This document shows, piece after piece, positions 2,821 through 10,735 of a stretch of 64,000 nucleotides of DNA. Both the position numbers and the translations under genes were made by a program. Below the pieces are notes generated by a model. It searched no databases. It saw only the letters and a program-made list of their open reading frames with translations, and was not told the DNA's origin. Origin of the DNA: Escherichia coli (GTDB lineage Bacteria; Pseudomonadota; Gammaproteobacteria; Enterobacterales; Enterobacteriaceae); NCBI RefSeq assembly GCF_013122565.1, contig NZ_CP053258.1. The stretch is one strand, 5' to 3'. Positions within the stretch are counted from its first letter, which is position 1; each line of letters begins with the position of its first letter.

Positions 2821-4032
2821 ATGCTTACCACCCTTATTTATCGTAGCCATATACGTGACGACGAACCTGTCAAAAAAATCGAAGAAATGGTTTCGATAGC
2901 AAATCGCAGGAACATGCAGTCTGACGTAACAGGGATCTTACTGTTTAATGGTTCTCATTTTTTCCAGCTTCTGGAAGGTCCGGAAGAACAGGTTAAAATG
3001 ATATATCGGGCTATATGCCAGGATCCACGGCACTATAATATTGTTGAGCTGCTGTGCGATTACGCGCCTGCTCGCCGTTTTGGCAAAGCGGGAATGGAAT
3101 TATTTGATTTGCGCCTGCACGAGCGAGATGATGTTTTACAGGCCGTATTCGACAAAGGCACATCAAAATTTCAGCTAACTTATGATGACAGAGCGCTACA
3201 ATTTTTTCGTACTTTTGTCCTTGCAACCGAACAATCAACCTATTTCGAGATCCCTGCCGAAGACTCCTGGCTTTTTATCGCTGACGGATCTGATAAAGCA
3301 CTTGATTCCTGTACCCTTTCACCAAATATAAACGACCACTTTGCTTTTCATCCTATTGTCGATCCCTTATCGCGGCGGATAATCGCTTTTGAAGCCATTG
3401 TGCAAAAAAATGAAGATAGCCCATCAGCTATAGAGGTTGGGCAGCGTAAAGACGGGGAAATCTACAAAGCGGATCTCAAAAGTAAGGCGCTTGCATTCGC
3501 GATGGCACACGCACTTGAGCTCGGTGATAAAATGATTTCAATCAATCTATTACCTATGACCCTGGTTAACGAACCTGACGCAGTCTCTTTTTTACTTGAT
3601 GAAATAAAGGCCAATGCTCTGGTGCCTGAACAAATCATCGTTGAATTTGCTGAAAGTGAAGTCATATCTCGGTTTGATGAGTTTGCAGAAGCGATTAAAT
3701 CGCTAAAGGCTGCTGGTATCAGTGTAGCAATTGATCATTTTGGCGCAGGTTTTGCCGGTTTGTTACTCCTGTCACGCTTCCAGCCTGACAGAATTAAAAT
3801 CAGTCAGGAATTGATTACCAATGTTCATAAAAGCGGGCCACGGCAGGCAATTATTCAGGCGATCATAAAATGCTGTACATCACTTGAAATTCAAGTCAGT
3901 GCTATGGGCGTGGCAACACCAGAAGAGTGGATGTGGCTTGAATCCGCAGGAATTGAGATGTTTCAGGGAGATCTGTTTGCTAAAGCTAAATTGAATGGTA
4001 TCCCTTCCATAGCGTGGCCAGAGAAAAAATAA
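2821..4032 (+). CDS. bluF: Blue-light sensing BLUF-EAL protein BluF (YcgF), anti-repressor of BluR
   Basis: ORF track 2743-4032; conserved start taken at internal ATG 2821 (MLTTLIYRSHIRDDEPVKKIEEMVSIANRR...), giving 403 aa. Confidence 0.9.
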   Translation: MLTTLIYRSHIRDDEPVKKIEEMVSIANRRNMQSDVTGILLFNGSHFFQLLEGPEEQVKMIYRAICQDPRHYNIVELLCDYAPARRFGKAGMELFDLRLHERDDVLQAVFDKGTSKFQLTYDDRALQFFRTFVLATEQSTYFEIPAEDSWLFIADGSDKALDSCTLSPNINDHFAFHPIVDPLSRRIIAFEAIVQKNEDSPSAIEVGQRKDGEIYKADLKSKALAFAMAHALELGDKMISINLLPMTLVNEPDAVSFLLDEIKANALVPEQIIVEFAESEVISRFDEFAEAIKSLKAAGISVAIDHFGAGFAGLLLLSRFQPDRIKISQELITNVHKSGPRQAIIQAIIKCCTSLEIQVSAMGVATPEEWMWLESAGIEMFQGDLFAKAKLNGIPSIAWPEKK

Positions 4033-4152
4033 TTTCCAGCATATTCTTTCACATGATTTCAGTAAATCATCGTGAAAATGAATACGTTATGTTTAAATTT
4101 AATCCACATTAAAAATAATGTTTCATCCAATTTAGCTGAAATCTTATTTATA

Positions 4153-4184
4153 CTTTGTACAATTTTAGCGTATATTGTACAAAG
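4153..4184. promoter_or_regulatory. Inverted repeat cTTTGTACAAt-N10-aTTGTACAAAg upstream of bluR; candidate MerR-family operator
   Basis: Two copies of the self-complementary octamer TTGTACAA 20 bp apart with 11-bp reverse-complementary arms, centred about 69 nt upstream of the bluR GTG start. Confidence 0.4.
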
Positions 4185-4236
4185 TATTATTGGGTCGTGT
4201 ACAGGCGACGGAGATTTGTGACCGCAAGGAGGAATT

Positions 4237-4968
4237 GTGGCTTATTACAGCATTGGTGATGTTGCTGAACGTTGCGGGATTAATCCTGTCACTCTCCGGG
4301 CCTGGCAACGCCGCTACGGTTTGTTAAAACCACAGCGCAGTGAAGGCGGACACCGACTCTTTGATGAAGAAGACATACAACGCATCGAAGAGATCAAGCG
4401 TTGGATAAGTAATGGCGTCCCTGTAGGCAAAGTTAAAGCATTACTGGAAACCACCAGCCAGGATACGGAAGATGACTGGAGCCGCCTGCAAGAAGAGATG
4501 ATGTCAATTCTTCGTATGGCTAATCCTGCCAAACTACGCGCGAGAATTATTTCACTGGGTCGAGAGTACCCAGTAGATCAATTGATTAATCATGTTTACC
4601 TTCCTGTTCGCCAGCGTCTCGTGCTTGATCACAACACCTCCCGCATTATGAGCAGTATGTTTGACGGCGCATTAATTGAATACGCAGCAGCCTCGCTTTT
4701 CGAAATGCGCCGTAAGCCCGGTAAAGAAGCCATTCTGATGGCGTGGAATGTTGAAGAGAGAGCCCGATTGTGGCTGGAAGCATGGCGTTTATCATTATCA
4801 GGATGGCACATTTCTGTTCTTGCTGATCCCATTGAATCGCCGCGCCCGGAACTGTTCCCAACGCAAACGTTGATTGTCTGGACAGGCATGGCACCAACGA
4901 GAAGGCAAAACGAACTTTTACAACACTGGGTTGAGCAAGGTTATAAAGTCATCTTTCATGCCCCCTAA
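4237..4968 (+). CDS. bluR: MerR-family transcriptional repressor BluR (YcgE)
   Basis: 243-aa [59 protein letters not shown]... with MerR-type N-terminal HTH; GTG start preceded by AAGGAGG. Confidence 0.9.
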
Positions 4969-5188: not shown

Positions 5189-5593
5189 ATGGATCAGGTC
5201 GTTGTTTTTCAAAAGATGTTTGAGCAAGTGAGAAAAGACCAAAACTTTTCCTGGTTTTATTCAGAATTAAAACATCACCGTATTGCACATTACATTTATT
5301 ATCTGGCTACGGATAACATCAGAATTATTACTCACGATGACACGGTTTTGTTATTAAGAGGAACCAGGAACCTGTTAAAAGTTAGTACGACCAAGAATCC
5401 TGCCAAAATAAAAGAGGCCGCATTGCTTCATATTTGCGGAAAATCTACATTTCGGGAATACTGTTCAACACTGGCAGGCGCGGGCGTTTTCCGGTGGGTT
5501 ACTGATGTTAATCATAACAAACGCAGTTACTACGCCATTGATAATACGCTTTTATATATTGAAGATGTAGAAAATAATAAACCATTAATCTAG
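5189..5593 (+). CDS. ycgX: Uncharacterized protein YcgX (DUF1398 family)
   Basis: 134-aa ORF MDQVVVFQKMFEQVRKDQNFSWFYSELKHHRIAHYIYYLATDNIRIITHDD... Confidence 0.85.
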   Translation: MDQVVVFQKMFEQVRKDQNFSWFYSELKHHRIAHYIYYLATDNIRIITHDDTVLLLRGTRNLLKVSTTKNPAKIKEAALLHICGKSTFREYCSTLAGAGVFRWVTDVNHNKRSYYAIDNTLLYIEDVENNKPLI

Positions 5594-5804
5594 CTAAAGT
5601 TGGAAGCTTAAGAAATGCTTCATAATTCAGTAAGGCATTAGCATAATGGAACTAAAAGTGCAGAGACTATTCCTATAGATCTTATACTGCCTTTTTATTG
5701 CCATCCATAGATGTTCAGTAGACCAATACTATAAAATTGATATTGAAATGTGCTCCCTTGCTTATTGATACATTATTTTATACGGTTAGTTTTCCTCTAA
5801 AAAC

Positions 5805-5829
5805 AACGGGCGTGCTATACGCCTGTTTC
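5805..5829 (-). terminator. Hairpin aacgggcgtgctatacgcctgtttc, a 23/25-identical copy of the icd terminator hairpin, with no obvious upstream gene on its strand
   Basis: Compare 7097-7121; on the minus strand the hairpin is followed by a U-rich tract. Confidence 0.35.
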
Positions 5830-5972
5830 AAGGCTTAACTCATATGAATTTTTCTTTATTTTTCATCACGTTATAATTTTTAACCAGCAACGAATTATCC
5901 TTCACTATAAAGTTCAATAGTTGAGACCTTATCCTCATGTCATGCGTATATTCATCATAATGATCCTTAGAC

Positions 5973-5998
5973 AAAAAAAGCCAACCATGATGGTTGGC
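5973..5998 (-). terminator. Orphan intrinsic terminator-like hairpin (8-bp stem gccaacca/tggttggc) followed by a U7 run on the minus strand
   Basis: Plus strand reads aaaaaaa-gccaaccatgatggttggc; no annotated minus-strand gene upstream of it. Confidence 0.45.
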
Positions 5999-6220
5999 AA
6001 AGTGGCACAAAGTAGCATAAAGGCTATGCTTTAATTACAGGAGGTTCAGACATTTGAATGTATATCGTTTTATCTAAACAGAACTAAAACGAAGTGAATG
6101 ATTTCATTTTTTCACTAAATCTCATTTTGTTTAATCTCTGTTGAGATTCCTTGTTTTAAATTTTGCTTTATATAAACAATAGCTTTATTTTTTAAATTGA
6201 TTTTTAGGTAATATAGAAAA

Positions 6221-6475
6221 ATGCAAAATCAAGGAATGAATATCCAAAGCAAACTATACGCATATTTAAATAAATATGACACTCGTCTTACAGAAGAAAA
6301 AATTGCGATTGAGAAAGCCATTAGAGAGTTACATTTTAGCAGCGAGCATGTTGATAACAAGAAAATAATACTGAAGTTACTATCATTTTTATCATATACA
6401 GATGATGTTGTCGAAAAAGACATTATCAGAAATGCATTGGAAGTGGTTCTTCTTTTTACTTCCGATGATATTTAA
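6221..6475 (+). CDS. AriR/YmgB-family small protein, paralog of ariR
   Basis: 84-aa ORF; C-terminal half VDNKKIILKLLSFLSYTDDVVEKDIIRNALEVVLLFTSDDI aligns with Ari[42 protein letters not shown]; weak Shine-Dalgarno. Confidence 0.55.
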   Translation: MQNQGMNIQSKLYAYLNKYDTRLTEEKIAIEKAIRELHFSSEHVDNKKIILKLLSFLSYTDDVVEKDIIRNALEVVLLFTSDDI

Positions 6476-6717
6476 TTGAATTCATTAATTTTATTATCAT
6501 AATTATTTTCCGGACACTACATTTTTTACTTATGTTTAATAATAACCACTGCGAATGAGGGACGCACAGGTATATTTTTCTCACACCTGTGATGTAAAAA
6601 CACGATAAAATCCAAATAAAGAATAAAATTTGCGACCCCACCAGATGGATTGCATCACACATTATTATTCAAAATATTTATCAACATCATTAATAGCCGA
6701 AGGATAAGACATAACAA

Positions 6718-7041
6718 ATGAAGTGGATAGTAATTGACACGGTAATTCAACCTACATGCGGTATATCTTTTTCAGCCATATGGGGTGATATGAAAATGAT
6801 CGTCTGGTATCAATCTACTATATTTCTCCCTCCTGGCAGTATATTTAAACCGGTTAAATCTGGTATTATCTTTAAGGATAAAGAATACCCTATTACTATT
6901 TATAACATCGCACCATTCAACAAGGATTTATGGAGTTTACTCAAAAGCAGTCAAGAGTGTCCTCCAGGAGAAAGCAAAATAACAAATAAATGTTTTCATA
7001 ATAGTTGCATTATAAAAATATGCCCATATGGGCTCAAGTAA
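6718..7041 (+). CDS. iraM: Anti-adaptor protein IraM (stabilizes RpoS by inhibiting RssB)
   Basis: 107-aa [36 protein letters not shown]...ICPYGLK; size and sequence match IraM (YcgW). Confidence 0.85.
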
Positions 7042-7143: not shown

Positions 7144-8394
7144 TTACATGTTTTCGATGATCGCGTCACCAAACTCTGAACATTTGAGCAGCTTAGCGCC
7201 TTCCATCAGACGTTCGAAGTCATAAGTTACGGTCTTCGCGTTGATTGCGCCTTCCATACCTTTAACAATCAGGTCTGCGGCTTCAGTCCAGCCCATATGG
7301 CGTAACATCATCTCTGCGGAGAGAATAATAGAGCCTGGGTTAACTTTGTCCTGACCGGCATATTTCGGCGCAGTACCGTGGGTGGCTTCAAACAGGGCGC
7401 ATTCGTCACCGATGTTTGCGCCAGGGGCGATACCAATACCACCAACCTGCGCTGCCAGGGCGTCAGAAATGTAGTCACCGTTCAGGTTCATACAGGCGAT
7501 AACGTCGTATTCAGCCGGACGTAGCAGGATCTGTTGCAGGAACGCATCAGCGATCACGTCTTTAATGACGATCTCTTTGCCGGTGTTCGGGTTTTTAACT
7601 TTCAGCCACGGGCCGCCGTCGATCAGTTCACCGCCAAACTCTTCACGCGCCAGCTGGTAGCCCCAGTCTTTAAACGCGCCTTCGGTGAACTTCATGATGT
7701 TACCTTTGTGCACCAGGGTCACAGAGTCACGATCGTTAGCAATTGCGTATTCGATCGCTGCACGAACCAGACGTTTGGTGCCTTCTTCCGAACACGGCTT
7801 AATACCGATACCGCAATGTTCCGGGAAACGAATTTTCTTCACGCCCATCTCTTCACGCAGGAATTTAATCACTTTCTCGGCGTCGGCAGAGTCAGCTTTC
7901 CATTCGATACCCGCATAAATGTCTTCCGAGTTTTCACGGAAGATAACCATATCGGTCAGTTCAGGGTGTTTAACCGGGCTTGGAGTGCCCTGATAGTAAC
8001 GTACCGGACGCAGGCAGATGTAGAGATCCAGTTCCTGACGCAGGGCAACGTTCAGAGAGCGAATACCGCCACCTACTGGAGTGGTCAGCGGGCCTTTAAT
8101 GGCAACGCGATATTCACGAATCAGATCAAGGGTTTCAGCAGGCAGCCAGACATCCTGACCATAAACCTGTGTGGATTTTTCACCGGTGTAAATTTCCATC
8201 CAGGAGATTTTACGCTCGCCTTTATAGGCTTTCTCGACTGCAGCGTCGACCACTTTCAGCATGGCTGGGGTTACATCTACACCGATTCCATCACCTTCAA
8301 TGTAAGGGATAATCGGATTTTCAGGAACGTTGAGTTTGCCGTTTTGCAGGGTGATCTTCTTGCCTTGTGCCGGAACAACTACTTTACTTTCCAT
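7144..8394 (-). CDS. icd: Isocitrate dehydrogenase (NADP), intact
   Basis: 416-aa [49 protein letters not shown]...[13 protein letters not shown]; full length with the native C-terminus. Confidence 0.97.
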
Positions 8395-8565
8395 TCACCT
8401 CTCCTTCGAGCGCTACTGGTTTGCTCGTCTGCCACCACGTTGCATATGCGTTTGCGTCCTGCGATACGGATGCTTTAGAGCAATTTTTTGTTAATGATTT
8501 GTAATTGGCTTGTCAATACTACCCTATTGTTTGCCGTCATGAAAGATGCGCGTTATTAGGCTATA

Positions 8566-8712
8566 ATGCGGCAATTCATAATCTCTGAAAATACCATGCA
8601 AAAAACTTCTTTTAGACCAAAGACAGTATTTTCCCGACCTTCAAATAAAGTATTAAATATCAATTATTTACACCAGACTTTAAGCAATAAAAAAACCACC
8701 AGAGATAACTAA
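8566..8712 (+). pseudogene. Detached canonical rluE start: first 17 codons of RluE (MRQFIISENTMQKTSFR) fused to unrelated sequence, ending after 48 codons
   Basis: Translation of 8566-8712 gives MRQFIISENTMQKTSFRPKTVFSRPSNKVLNINYLHQTLSNKKTTRDN; the first 17 residues match the RluE N-terminus as I recall it for K-12; a TATAAT hexamer overlaps the ATG. Confidence 0.5.
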
Positions 8713-8854
8713 CAGGGTGCTATTTGGTCAAAATTTGACATTACTCGATTCAGCGACTAACTCACTTTGAGCACTATTGGGAAAATTATCAAAAGTCATG
8801 GTTGAAGCGACAAGCAACGAGTAAATTATGGCATCCACCCTTTTTGAGGTTCAC

Positions 8855-8947
8855 ATGAAACGCTTTGCACTGATAGCTGTGACACTCATTGCCTTTACTG
8901 GTTCTAGTTCTGCATCTGCTGCAACCGAAGAAATCAACTTCAAGTAA
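8855..8947 (+). CDS. Mini-ORF (30 aa) with a signal-peptide-like sequence: MKRFALIAVTLIAFTGSSSASAATEEINFK
   Basis: GAGG Shine-Dalgarno 5 nt upstream of ATG; hydrophobic core plus ASA-A cleavage-like motif; in the same frame as the next ORF but separated by TAA and TGA stops. Confidence 0.35.
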   Translation: MKRFALIAVTLIAFTGSSSASAATEEINFK

Positions 8948-8980
8948 CAGAAACACTATATAACAATGGAGTGTTGAAAA

Positions 8981-9430
8981 ATGGATACTACCGAAGAACG
9001 CAATGGAACATATTTCTACAGAGGACACCCGAACCTGTCCAAAATAGAACTACTCAACGTCATATTCCTTGAAGAATTCTGTAAGGAATTGGGGATTGAT
9101 TCGGTATCAGGTGCAGCAATCTTATCTGGTCAACCTTGGCTGGGTACAAGAGCGAAGCCGGAAGGGGCAACCCTGGGAACAAGTGTTGTCTCAAAGTATG
9201 CGCGTATACTGATGAGAGATGCACGCATGCCTTTTGGTATTTCTGTTCATACAACAGTGGGTGTAAGGATGCAGAAATCTAATAAGCTTGCTGCAATTAT
9301 CGCTCGTTGGGTCCCGTGGATTGGTTGGGCTTCACTGTCGATGAGTCTTTACAGGATTTCGACTCGTACCCAGGAAAAATACAATCTGATTGCCAAACCT
9401 CAAGACCGTATTAAGTGGACTTCCTTCTAA
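8981..9430 (+). CDS. Hypothetical protein (149 aa), unknown function, with a hydrophobic C-proximal segment; first gene of a two-gene overlapping module
   Basis: ORF MDTTEERNGTYFYRGHPNLSKIELLNVIFLEEFCKELG...LAAIIARWVPWIGWASLSMSLY...; its stop overlaps the start of the next ORF (TAATG); no family recognised. Confidence 0.6.
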   Translation: MDTTEERNGTYFYRGHPNLSKIELLNVIFLEEFCKELGIDSVSGAAILSGQPWLGTRAKPEGATLGTSVVSKYARILMRDARMPFGISVHTTVGVRMQKSNKLAAIIARWVPWIGWASLSMSLYRISTRTQEKYNLIAKPQDRIKWTSF

Positions 9431-9765
9431 TGGCGACAACAATCACAGACGAAGTTTTAGCACTGTTCCGTGATGAGATTCCAGGTTATCAGGATGATCA
9501 CGGGAAGGAAATTCCGTTAGAACTGGACTCTGATTTGTTCGACTATCCACGAGATGATTTAGAGGACGCTATACGGAAATACAAAGAGAGGTTTGGGATT
9601 AACCTGGATAATCTGGAATGGTCTTTGTACCTTCCGTGGGAGTCTGCACCATTGCTTCAACGATGGTTCAAGCTCAAGCGGGAAGAGGTAGAAACAACAC
9701 GTTTACCGTTAACTGTACGGATGTTTGCAGAATCAGCAGAAGCGGGAAAATGGCTGTATCAGTAG
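9430..9765 (+). CDS. Hypothetical small acidic protein (about 111 aa); possible immunity or antitoxin-like partner of the upstream ORF
   Basis: ORF track 9415-9765; likely start at ATG 9430 overlapping the upstream stop; sequence MATTITDEVLALFRDEIPGYQDDHGKEIPLELDSDLFDYPRDDLEDAIRKYKERFGINL... is rich in Asp/Glu. Confidence 0.6.
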   Translation: MATTITDEVLALFRDEIPGYQDDHGKEIPLELDSDLFDYPRDDLEDAIRKYKERFGINLDNLEWSLYLPWESAPLLQRWFKLKREEVETTRLPLTVRMFAESAEAGKWLYQ

Positions 9766-9772
9766 AATAAAA

Positions 9773-9795
9773 AAGAAGGCTGCGATGCCCTTCTT
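9773..9795 (+). terminator. Candidate stem-loop terminator after the two-gene module
   Basis: aagaagg-ctgcgatgc-ccttctt hairpin 8 nt after the stop codon; the U-tract is weak. Confidence 0.35.
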
Positions 9796-10096
9796 ATTAC
9801 TGCTGATGATGGTAGTGGTAAAGCATCATCCTGAACTTAAACAGTGAAGTGCTGTCACCCATCAGTAATACAGAAACACTATTTTCATACCAGTATTTAT
9901 TCAATTCATCAATGTAAAATGTGTTCATTGGGCCATATTTATCACCATGCAGCCACACAACCGCTGCTCACTAACCCAGGTATTGATGAAACCGCGCTGA
10001 AGAGCCTGAACCCTGAACCTCTAACGAGTACCTTCAAAGTCCAATGCAATCCGACACTGTGCTAACCTCTGCGTATAGCTCTATTTGGAATTTACC

Positions 10097-10735
10097 ATGA
10101 AATACTTTAGCGATTCTAAATCTTCTTTTAGAAAAAAACAGGTTAGTCGACTAAACTCGCAACACACCACTAAGCGTAAACCTGAAAACCAGCCCACGCG
10201 TGTGATCCTGTTCAATAAACCCTACGATGTTCTTCCGCAGTTTACCGATGAAGCCGGGCGCAAAACATTAAAAGAATTCATCCCGGTTCAGGGCGTTTAT
10301 GCAGCAGGTCGTCTTGACCGCGATAGCGAAGGGTTACTGGTGCTGACCAATAACGGCGCGTTGCAGGCGCGTTTAACCCAGCCGGGCAAACGCACCGGAA
10401 AAATCTATTATGTGCAGGTGGAAGGTATTCCCACACAAGACGCACTTGAAGCCTTGCGCAATGGCGTAACCTTAAATGATGGCCCTACCCTGCCCGCAGG
10501 CGCGGAGCTGGTTGAAGAACCCGCGTGGTTATGGCCGCGGAATCCACCAATTCGTGAACGCAAAAGTATTCCCACCAGCTGGCTGAAGATCACCTTATAT
10601 GAAGGACGTAATCGCCAGGTGCGCCGCATGACCGCCCATGTTGGTTTCCCCACGCTGCGACTAATTCGCTATGCGATGGGTGATTACTCTTTGGATAATC
10701 TTGCCAATGGCGAATGGCGAGAAGTGACAGATTAA
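10097..10735 (+). CDS. rluE: 23S rRNA pseudouridine synthase RluE with a variant N-terminus
   Basis: ORF track 10085-10735 (TTG); likely ATG at 10097; from [23 protein letters not shown] onward matches RluE, but the first ~30 residues ([26 protein letters not shown]) differ from the canonical N-terminus encoded at 8566. Confidence 0.88.

Follow-up and report, generated by a model that had tools for sequence, protein, structure and literature searches.

How should a short open reading frame (ORF) be interpreted that starts as rluE beside the divergent icd gene and leaves the rluE sequence after a few codons? Such an ORF of 48 codons was noticed in the window, i.e., the whole 64,000-nt stretch of Escherichia coli DNA analysed here. 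A sequence-only reading, made with the DNA letters and a list of ORFs, had described it as the detached native start of rluE, which would produce a new small protein if the native promoter were still active. Based on comparison with K-12, with other carriers of the same arrangement and with related taxa, the best explanation overall, to which we assign a probability of about 0.85, is that this ORF (hereafter, the stump ORF) is a junction scar, formed when a 1558-nt island replaced rluE codons 18–31 and rebuilt rluE.

The displaced 5′ end of rluE

Alignment to the MG1655 locus demonstrated that window positions 8395–8616 are the K-12 icd–rluE intergenic region and rluE codons 1–17, matching at every base. 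Codons 1–17 (MRQFIISENTMQKTSFR, 8566–8616) are also those of the annotated K-12 RluE (WP_001248691.1) and of the PDB 2OLW sequence. Since 17/17 codons and 171/171 upstream nucleotides match K-12, the stump ORF is a 5′ fragment of rluE. The assignment of these codons to the canonical RluE N-terminus by the sequence-only reading is thereby borne out: the annotated K-12 protein does begin with the stump peptide, and the upstream 171 nt are identical. Its placing of a detached native start next to the divergent icd promoter region holds as well, with the icd start at 8394 and a 171-nt gap as in K-12. Beyond 8616 the K-12 alignment breaks, and the frame enters non-rluE sequence after codon 17, as had been proposed: the window continues with CCAAAGACAG... 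and K-12 with AATCACCAGG..., the former being AT-rich and having no relation to rluE. The stop codon is TAA 8710–8712. In total, the stump ORF holds RluE residues 1–17, while the crystallised core comprises residues 29–217. The 48-aa product gave no Pfam or NCBIfam match, and the pseudouridine synthase catalytic domain (PF00849/NF008487) is missing from it. The features of the locus are listed in Table 1.

Table 1. Coordinates of the icd–rluE locus, its island and the related loci used for comparison
Feature	Coordinates	Strand	Basis or remark
icd (isocitrate dehydrogenase), divergent neighbour	7144..8394	-	416-aa ORF; annotated at the same relative position in PT62 and K-12
Native icd–rluE intergenic region, 171 nt	8395..8565		Alignment; identical to K-12
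Sigma-70-like promoter ATGAAA-17-TATAAT, -10 overlapping the annotated ATG	8539..8567	+	10/12 consensus positions (predicted)
Chimeric 48-codon ORF, ATG to TAA: 17 native rluE and 31 island codons	8566..8712	+	
Same frame from ATG 8596 (K-12 Met11): 38 codons, 7 native (MQKTSFR)	8596..8712	+	
Annotated versus conserved K-12 rluE start	window 8566-8598; K-12 locus L002 2672-2704		
Left copy of CTTCTTTTAGA, 11 nt; junction directly after 8616	8606..8616	+	Repeat search
Accessory island, 1558 nt, in place of 42 nt (native rluE codons 18–31)	8617..10174	+	K-12 alignment
30-codon signal-peptide-like ORF MKRFALIAVTLIAFTGSSSASAATEEINFK, GAGG ribosome-binding site	8855..8947	+	ORF list, carrier alignment
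STM2901-family gene, 149 aa	8981..9430	+	NCBIfam NF045926, E 3e-46; PGAP; ~99% among carriers
DUF1493 gene, 111 aa	9430..9765	+	Pfam PF07377, E 2e-29; PGAP
Stable hairpin directly past the DUF1493 stop	9760..9805		-15.3 kcal/mol, z -3.8 on the + strand (predicted)
53-codon ORF	9797..9958	-	Open in the window only
Diverged copy of rluE promoter and 5′ end, island-borne	10040..10174	+	Aligns with the native region of seven taxa
Rebuilt rluE, 212 aa, new N-terminal tail	10097..10735	+	NCBIfam RluE equivalog, E 5e-141
Right copy of CTTCTTTTAGA core	10122-10132	+	Repeat search
hcp-preceded pair loci, other genera	L008, L009, L011, L012, L014-L018, ~3500-4780 in each		

The promoter given in Table 1 is the only + strand promoter-like site predicted in 8300–10400, and its -10 hexamer is perfect. 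TATAAT (8562–8567) overlaps the ATG of the stump ORF (8566–8568), and it had already been suspected on this ground that the ATG may not be the true start. Comparative data strengthen the suspicion. TATAAT is invariant in the seven enterobacterial taxa compared. On one metagenome contig (L024), the "Met1" frame reads ATG CGT TAA and stops at codon 3; a second contig (L025), which may carry sequencing errors, has a 1-nt deletion in the same frame. At the same time, CTGAAAAYACYATG followed by MxKTSFR is kept in all taxa compared, both contigs included. In K-12, the curated NCBIfam RluE model covers residues 12–217, and the island-borne copy of rluE has no Met1-like extension. Codon-position counts of the variable sites upstream of Met11 were 3/2/6 over 27 sites in five genera, the downstream tail being equally unperiodic.

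Because TATAAT is invariant and the upstream ATG frame of one taxon contains a stop, we take ATG 8596 as the conserved start, and seven native codons are therefore left in the stump. The locus comparison is independent evidence on the K-12 RluE start, which is probably Met11 rather than Met1; K-12/RefSeq RluE (217 aa, also the PDB 2OLW construct) would then be annotated 10 codons too early. Judging from the positions of these signals, the transcript likely starts near 8574 and translation at 8596, and the product would comprise 38 aa in the window and 13 aa in the variant with a TGA codon described below. No significant RNA structure was predicted in the leader, and no Rfam family was found in 8300–10300 on either strand at E up to 1. 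A full-text literature search and the supplements of TRAINSPOTTER, the Salmonella riboproteogenomics study and Cappable-seq yielded no transcription start or initiation site for rluE.

The island and the rebuilt rluE

The island was found at the rluE locus in 374 of 5426 complete E. coli genomes (~7%). Exactly the same 374 genomes have the island-type rluE 5′ end, which never occurs without the cargo. The same arrangement is present in the cryptic-clade Escherichia sp. E1V33, and the left junction is identical in the window, five other aligned E. coli carriers and E1V33. No literature on an island at rluE was found.

Within the island, the GC content falls to 0.32–0.46, with 31–33% in the first 200 nt, and ~140 nt are untranslated from the stump stop to the next ORF. 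This ORF of 30 codons is kept among carriers, three of which have an in-frame 6-nt deletion. It consists of a signal peptide-like sequence and only ~8 residues and could encode a tiny secreted peptide or be itself the stump of a longer secreted protein. It is followed by the STM2901-family and DUF1493 genes, whose neighbourhood was also inspected in 11 loci of other genera (Enterobacter, Lelliottia, Erwinia, Pantoea and others). In nine of them, the pair directly follows a gene for a 160-aa Hcp protein (PF05638). By analogy, this suggests that the pair is an orphan T6SS effector/immunity cassette. The island proteins had no match in PADLOC or in PDB sequence searches. In E. coli IAI39 (L004, 2332–4094), an IS3-family element sits inside the STM2901-family gene, and the cargo is therefore dispensable in at least this strain.

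A terminator-like signal on the - strand (9791–9776) was located in the region of the hairpin past the DUF1493 gene. The 53-codon ORF on the - strand, which gave no Pfam or NCBIfam match, ends directly before this good - strand terminator-like hairpin (9776–9791); all other carriers examined have it broken into two frames. It probably derives from the 3′ end of a lost gene and has since decayed. Among the island ORFs, neither a recombinase/integrase nor an excisionase nor a transfer gene was recognised using Pfam, NCBIfam and PGAP.

K-12-like sequence resumes at 10175. The end of the island preceding this point is a diverged copy of the rluE promoter and 5′ end, and its alignment with the seven taxa runs from the -35/-10 area through the start codon. 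Two promoter-like motifs were predicted in the copy, TGcTAACCT (10060–10068) and CCGACA-17-TATAGC (10051–10079). The start codon, ATG 10097, has the context TACCATG, the same as K-12 Met11, and is annotated by PGAP in all carriers examined; a longer N-terminal extension of the rebuilt RluE is ruled out by an in-frame TAG at 10076–10078. Identity to K-12 is 67% over codons 18–31 and then ~98% from 10175, and the new 5′ coding sequence is ~55–60% identical at the protein level over ~30 residues. As a result, native RluE, from RKPENQ... onwards, is preceded in frame by 26 new residues. The exchanged tail lies outside the crystallised core (PDB 2OML, RluE residues 29–217), which fits the tail being replaceable. 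Based on these sequences, RluE of ~7% of complete E. coli genomes would have a different N-terminal tail and different upstream signals.

It should be noted that TGTGATCCTGTTCAAT (10201–10216, inside rluE) matches ATTGAACAGGATCACA, a CRP ChIP site that a study of ETEC H10407 reported for the stretch between rluE and icd (PMC4287617). The distance from icd to the matching site is ~1.5 kb greater in island carriers than in K-12.

Expression and coding status of the stump ORF

We suggest the following scheme for the present state of the locus. The insertion left the intergenic region in place together with the rluE promoter and 17 annotated codons (seven if the start is 8596), and from there the frame runs by chance through 31 AT-rich island codons to TAA. 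The right end of the island supplies the diverged rluE promoter and 5′ end, giving a complete RluE of 212 aa. With an intact promoter and initiation region and no predicted structure in the leader, the stump probably continues to be transcribed and, briefly, translated. The native promoter probably still fires into the island, the stump serving as a disposable leader. The transcript may continue into the 30-codon ORF and the STM2901-family and DUF1493 genes; no + strand terminator was predicted before the hairpin past DUF1493, which may attenuate the transcript. The rluE gene may be expressed by read-through, from the island-borne promoter-like motifs, or both. The role of the stump would at most be that of a promoter and a disposable leader feeding the island genes. 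If the native promoter does drive these genes, the locus would be a small-scale case of accessory genes capturing a housekeeping promoter.

A further step can be put forward only tentatively: the rluE promoter, start and variable leader ORF may have been co-opted as an expression module of the island, so that a housekeeping promoter would now drive the putative orphan T6SS-type pair (STM2901-family and DUF1493), with translation of the stump shielding the transcript in the AT-rich entry and rluE moved to the weaker island-borne signals. Were this true, the insertion would have rewired, in ~7% of E. coli, how the cargo and an rRNA-modification enzyme are expressed. The 222 nt left of the junction (8395–8616) are near-invariant among carriers, with 99–100% identity across all carriers, K-12 and the cryptic clade, and the DNA directly right of the junction varies. 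This could reflect continued selection on the stump promoter and start. It is equally explained by constraint on icd regulation or by recombination with island-free strains. Upstream blocks of the intergenic region are kept across genera.

It is also conceivable, if rather unlikely, that the stump is inert, i.e., that the promoter is silenced or transcription ends early (for example, by H-NS or Rho acting on the AT-rich untranslated DNA of the island), so that no peptide is made and the island genes depend on internal signals. The low GC content of the first 200 nt, the ~140 untranslated nucleotides past the stump stop and the island's own promoter-like sequences for rluE are consistent with such silence. 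However, neither a + strand promoter-like site that could serve the 30-codon ORF and the STM2901-family gene nor an intrinsic terminator was predicted in 8617–8980, and the native promoter matches the consensus at 10 of 12 positions with a perfect -10.

Whether or not it is transcribed, the stump ORF does not behave as a gene. The length of its frame is 48 codons in the window and PT62, 47 in XJ5.2, 23 in ECONIH1 and IAI39, and 68 in O102:H6; the differences are caused by TGA at codon 24 and by a poly-A tract of 7–9 A. According to exact-match counts in all complete E. coli genomes, codon 24 is TGA in 96, AGA in 253 and CGA, the window type, in 12–13; the TGA thus affects 96 of the 374 carriers. 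The ORF tail falls in the left non-coding part of the island, where the three more distant E. coli carriers are 93.8–95.4% identical to the window. This segment is the most divergent of the locus, and the STM2901-family and DUF1493 genes are ~99% identical. There is no PGAP or RefSeq annotation over the stump in the carriers examined. When the local sequence was shuffled 20000 times, the frame ran on for 31 codons or more past the junction with P ~0.11, and the length of the stump ORF is within chance expectation. Because the tail varies between strains, we regard the stump ORF as a by-product of the junction and not as a new protein gene; it is not maintained as a protein-coding sequence.

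A newborn functional small protein, in which the native promoter and start would have been exapted for a 38- or 48-aa peptide kept for its own activity, is accordingly very improbable. The fully intact promoter and start region, the unstructured leader and the open frame in the window and the 12–13 genomes of the same variant would suit it, and since the 48-codon version is common to these 12–13 genomes, a lineage-specific peptide is conceivable. Against it stand the codon-24 stop in 96 of 374 carriers and the frameshifts to 47 or 68 codons in others, a tail that diverges by 5–6% versus ~1% for the cargo genes, no homologues, domains or family, and a length compatible with chance. The new small protein of the sequence-only reading does not survive this comparison as a gene.

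The stump ORF is an ordinary junction remnant. As a displaced 5′ fragment of rluE, it should not be called as a gene, and its relevance is mainly to annotation and to the reading of E. coli genome variation.

Ancestry, origin and comparison with known systems

Salmonella and five other enterobacterial taxa have a K-12-type start of the MxKTSFR type, and icd is adjacent to rluE in all five outgroup contigs extending far enough upstream. The ancestral form is therefore the island-free, K-12-like one. E. coli and the cryptic clade share 97–98% identity in the island genes and 90.6% in the flanking rluE, which indicates spread by recombination after a single insertion. The opposite history, in which Escherichia ancestrally carried the island and the K-12 form lost it through a deletion between the CTTCTTTTAGA copies, might draw on these imperfect direct repeats flanking the island and on its presence in several E. 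coli lineages and the cryptic clade, but it is extremely improbable and was rejected on the junction sequence and the outgroup starts, because a repeat deletion would leave island-type codons 18–31 (67% identical) instead of the K-12 sequence, the outgroups show the K-12 arrangement, and the higher identity of the island than of flanking rluE speaks for later exchange rather than ancient vertical descent.

As for the insertion itself, two routes are considered: a decayed integrative element, once larger, whose left part including attL was lost, or a one-sided homologous import, with its anchor in conserved rluE and an illegitimate joint on the left. We give them roughly equal weight, as the searches turned up neither a donor nor an intact element. 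When the new N-terminus was used as a protein query, the hits were limited to this same Escherichia variant and to K-12-type starts of other genera, and the non-coding island flanks had no match in the 11 pair loci of other genera. No excised or larger form of the island, and none with other cargo or at other sites, was detected in the complete E. coli genomes or in the plasmid and phage collections. These two collections yielded nothing but an over-extended prophage record and what is probably a fragment of chromosomal DNA; of these, the phage record alone was inspected. This record, ON470584.1 ("Escherichia phage vB_EcoM-689R6"; L019), includes icd, the island, rluE, nudJ, mnmA and hflD and is an icd-integrated prophage prediction running into chromosomal genes; it also has a spurious annotation across the stump ORF, a 43-aa "alpha-amylase" on the - strand. 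In the window, iraM, an AriR/YmgB-family gene and ycgX lie beyond the icd 3′ end (5189–7041), with no e14 between these and icd, and the strain is therefore without e14 at the icd attachment site.

Several known systems resemble parts of this arrangement. The cargo recalls the orphan hcp-effector-immunity cassettes of T6SS, in view of the Hcp gene preceding the pair in nine of 11 loci of other genera. Unlike these cassettes, the window's island contains neither hcp nor an hcp remnant, and the effector and immunity roles are putative.

Homology-facilitated illegitimate recombination, known from studies of natural transformation, combines one homologous anchor with one illegitimate joint. The island shows similar traits: its right edge switches abruptly from 67% to ~98% identity inside conserved rluE, and its left joint has no flanking homology, with 42 nt of recipient DNA deleted. 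However, the searches revealed no donor carrying this rluE 5′ end, and such recombination is undocumented at this locus.

When e14 or phage 21 integrates into icd, it brings along a replacement for one end of the gene, and the original end persists as the icdC fragment. Here too, a diverged copy of a gene end was brought in and the displaced native end is a non-functional fragment at the opposite junction. However, in icd it is the 3′ end that is exchanged, by a prophage with an integrase, and the fragment left is promoterless, whereas in rluE the 5′ end is affected and the promoter and start are kept by the fragment.

The closest known mechanism, to which the analogy is strong, is the integration of SXT and of the dusA-specific elements. 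A new promoter and a new N-terminus come with SXT in prfC and with the latter elements in dusA alike; in the dusA elements, the new N-terminus is 61% identical over the first 35 residues (PMC8409611). Like them, the island sits in the 5′ coding end of a housekeeping gene for RNA modification or translation, detaches the native promoter and first codons at one end and brings a diverged 5′ coding sequence that restores the frame, along with a promoter in the form of predicted motifs. The flanks give a mixed picture, with the 11-nt CTTCTTTTAGA at both ends but non-native sequence beside the right-hand copy. The differences concern both the content and the left junction: the 1.56-kb island has no integrase, excisionase or transfer gene, and, unlike the product of simple site-specific recombination, the left junction does not contain native codons 18–31. 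Simple site-specific integration at CTTCTTTTAGA was rejected as insufficient on its own: what follows the right-hand copy on its right is island-type instead of native sequence. The attL side has no codons 18–31, and a secondary deletion must be assumed. At best, the island would be a decayed remnant of an element of the SXT/dusA type. The locus presents an integrase-less island that gives rluE a substitute promoter, as judged from its motifs, and a substitute N-terminus in ~7% of complete E. coli genomes.
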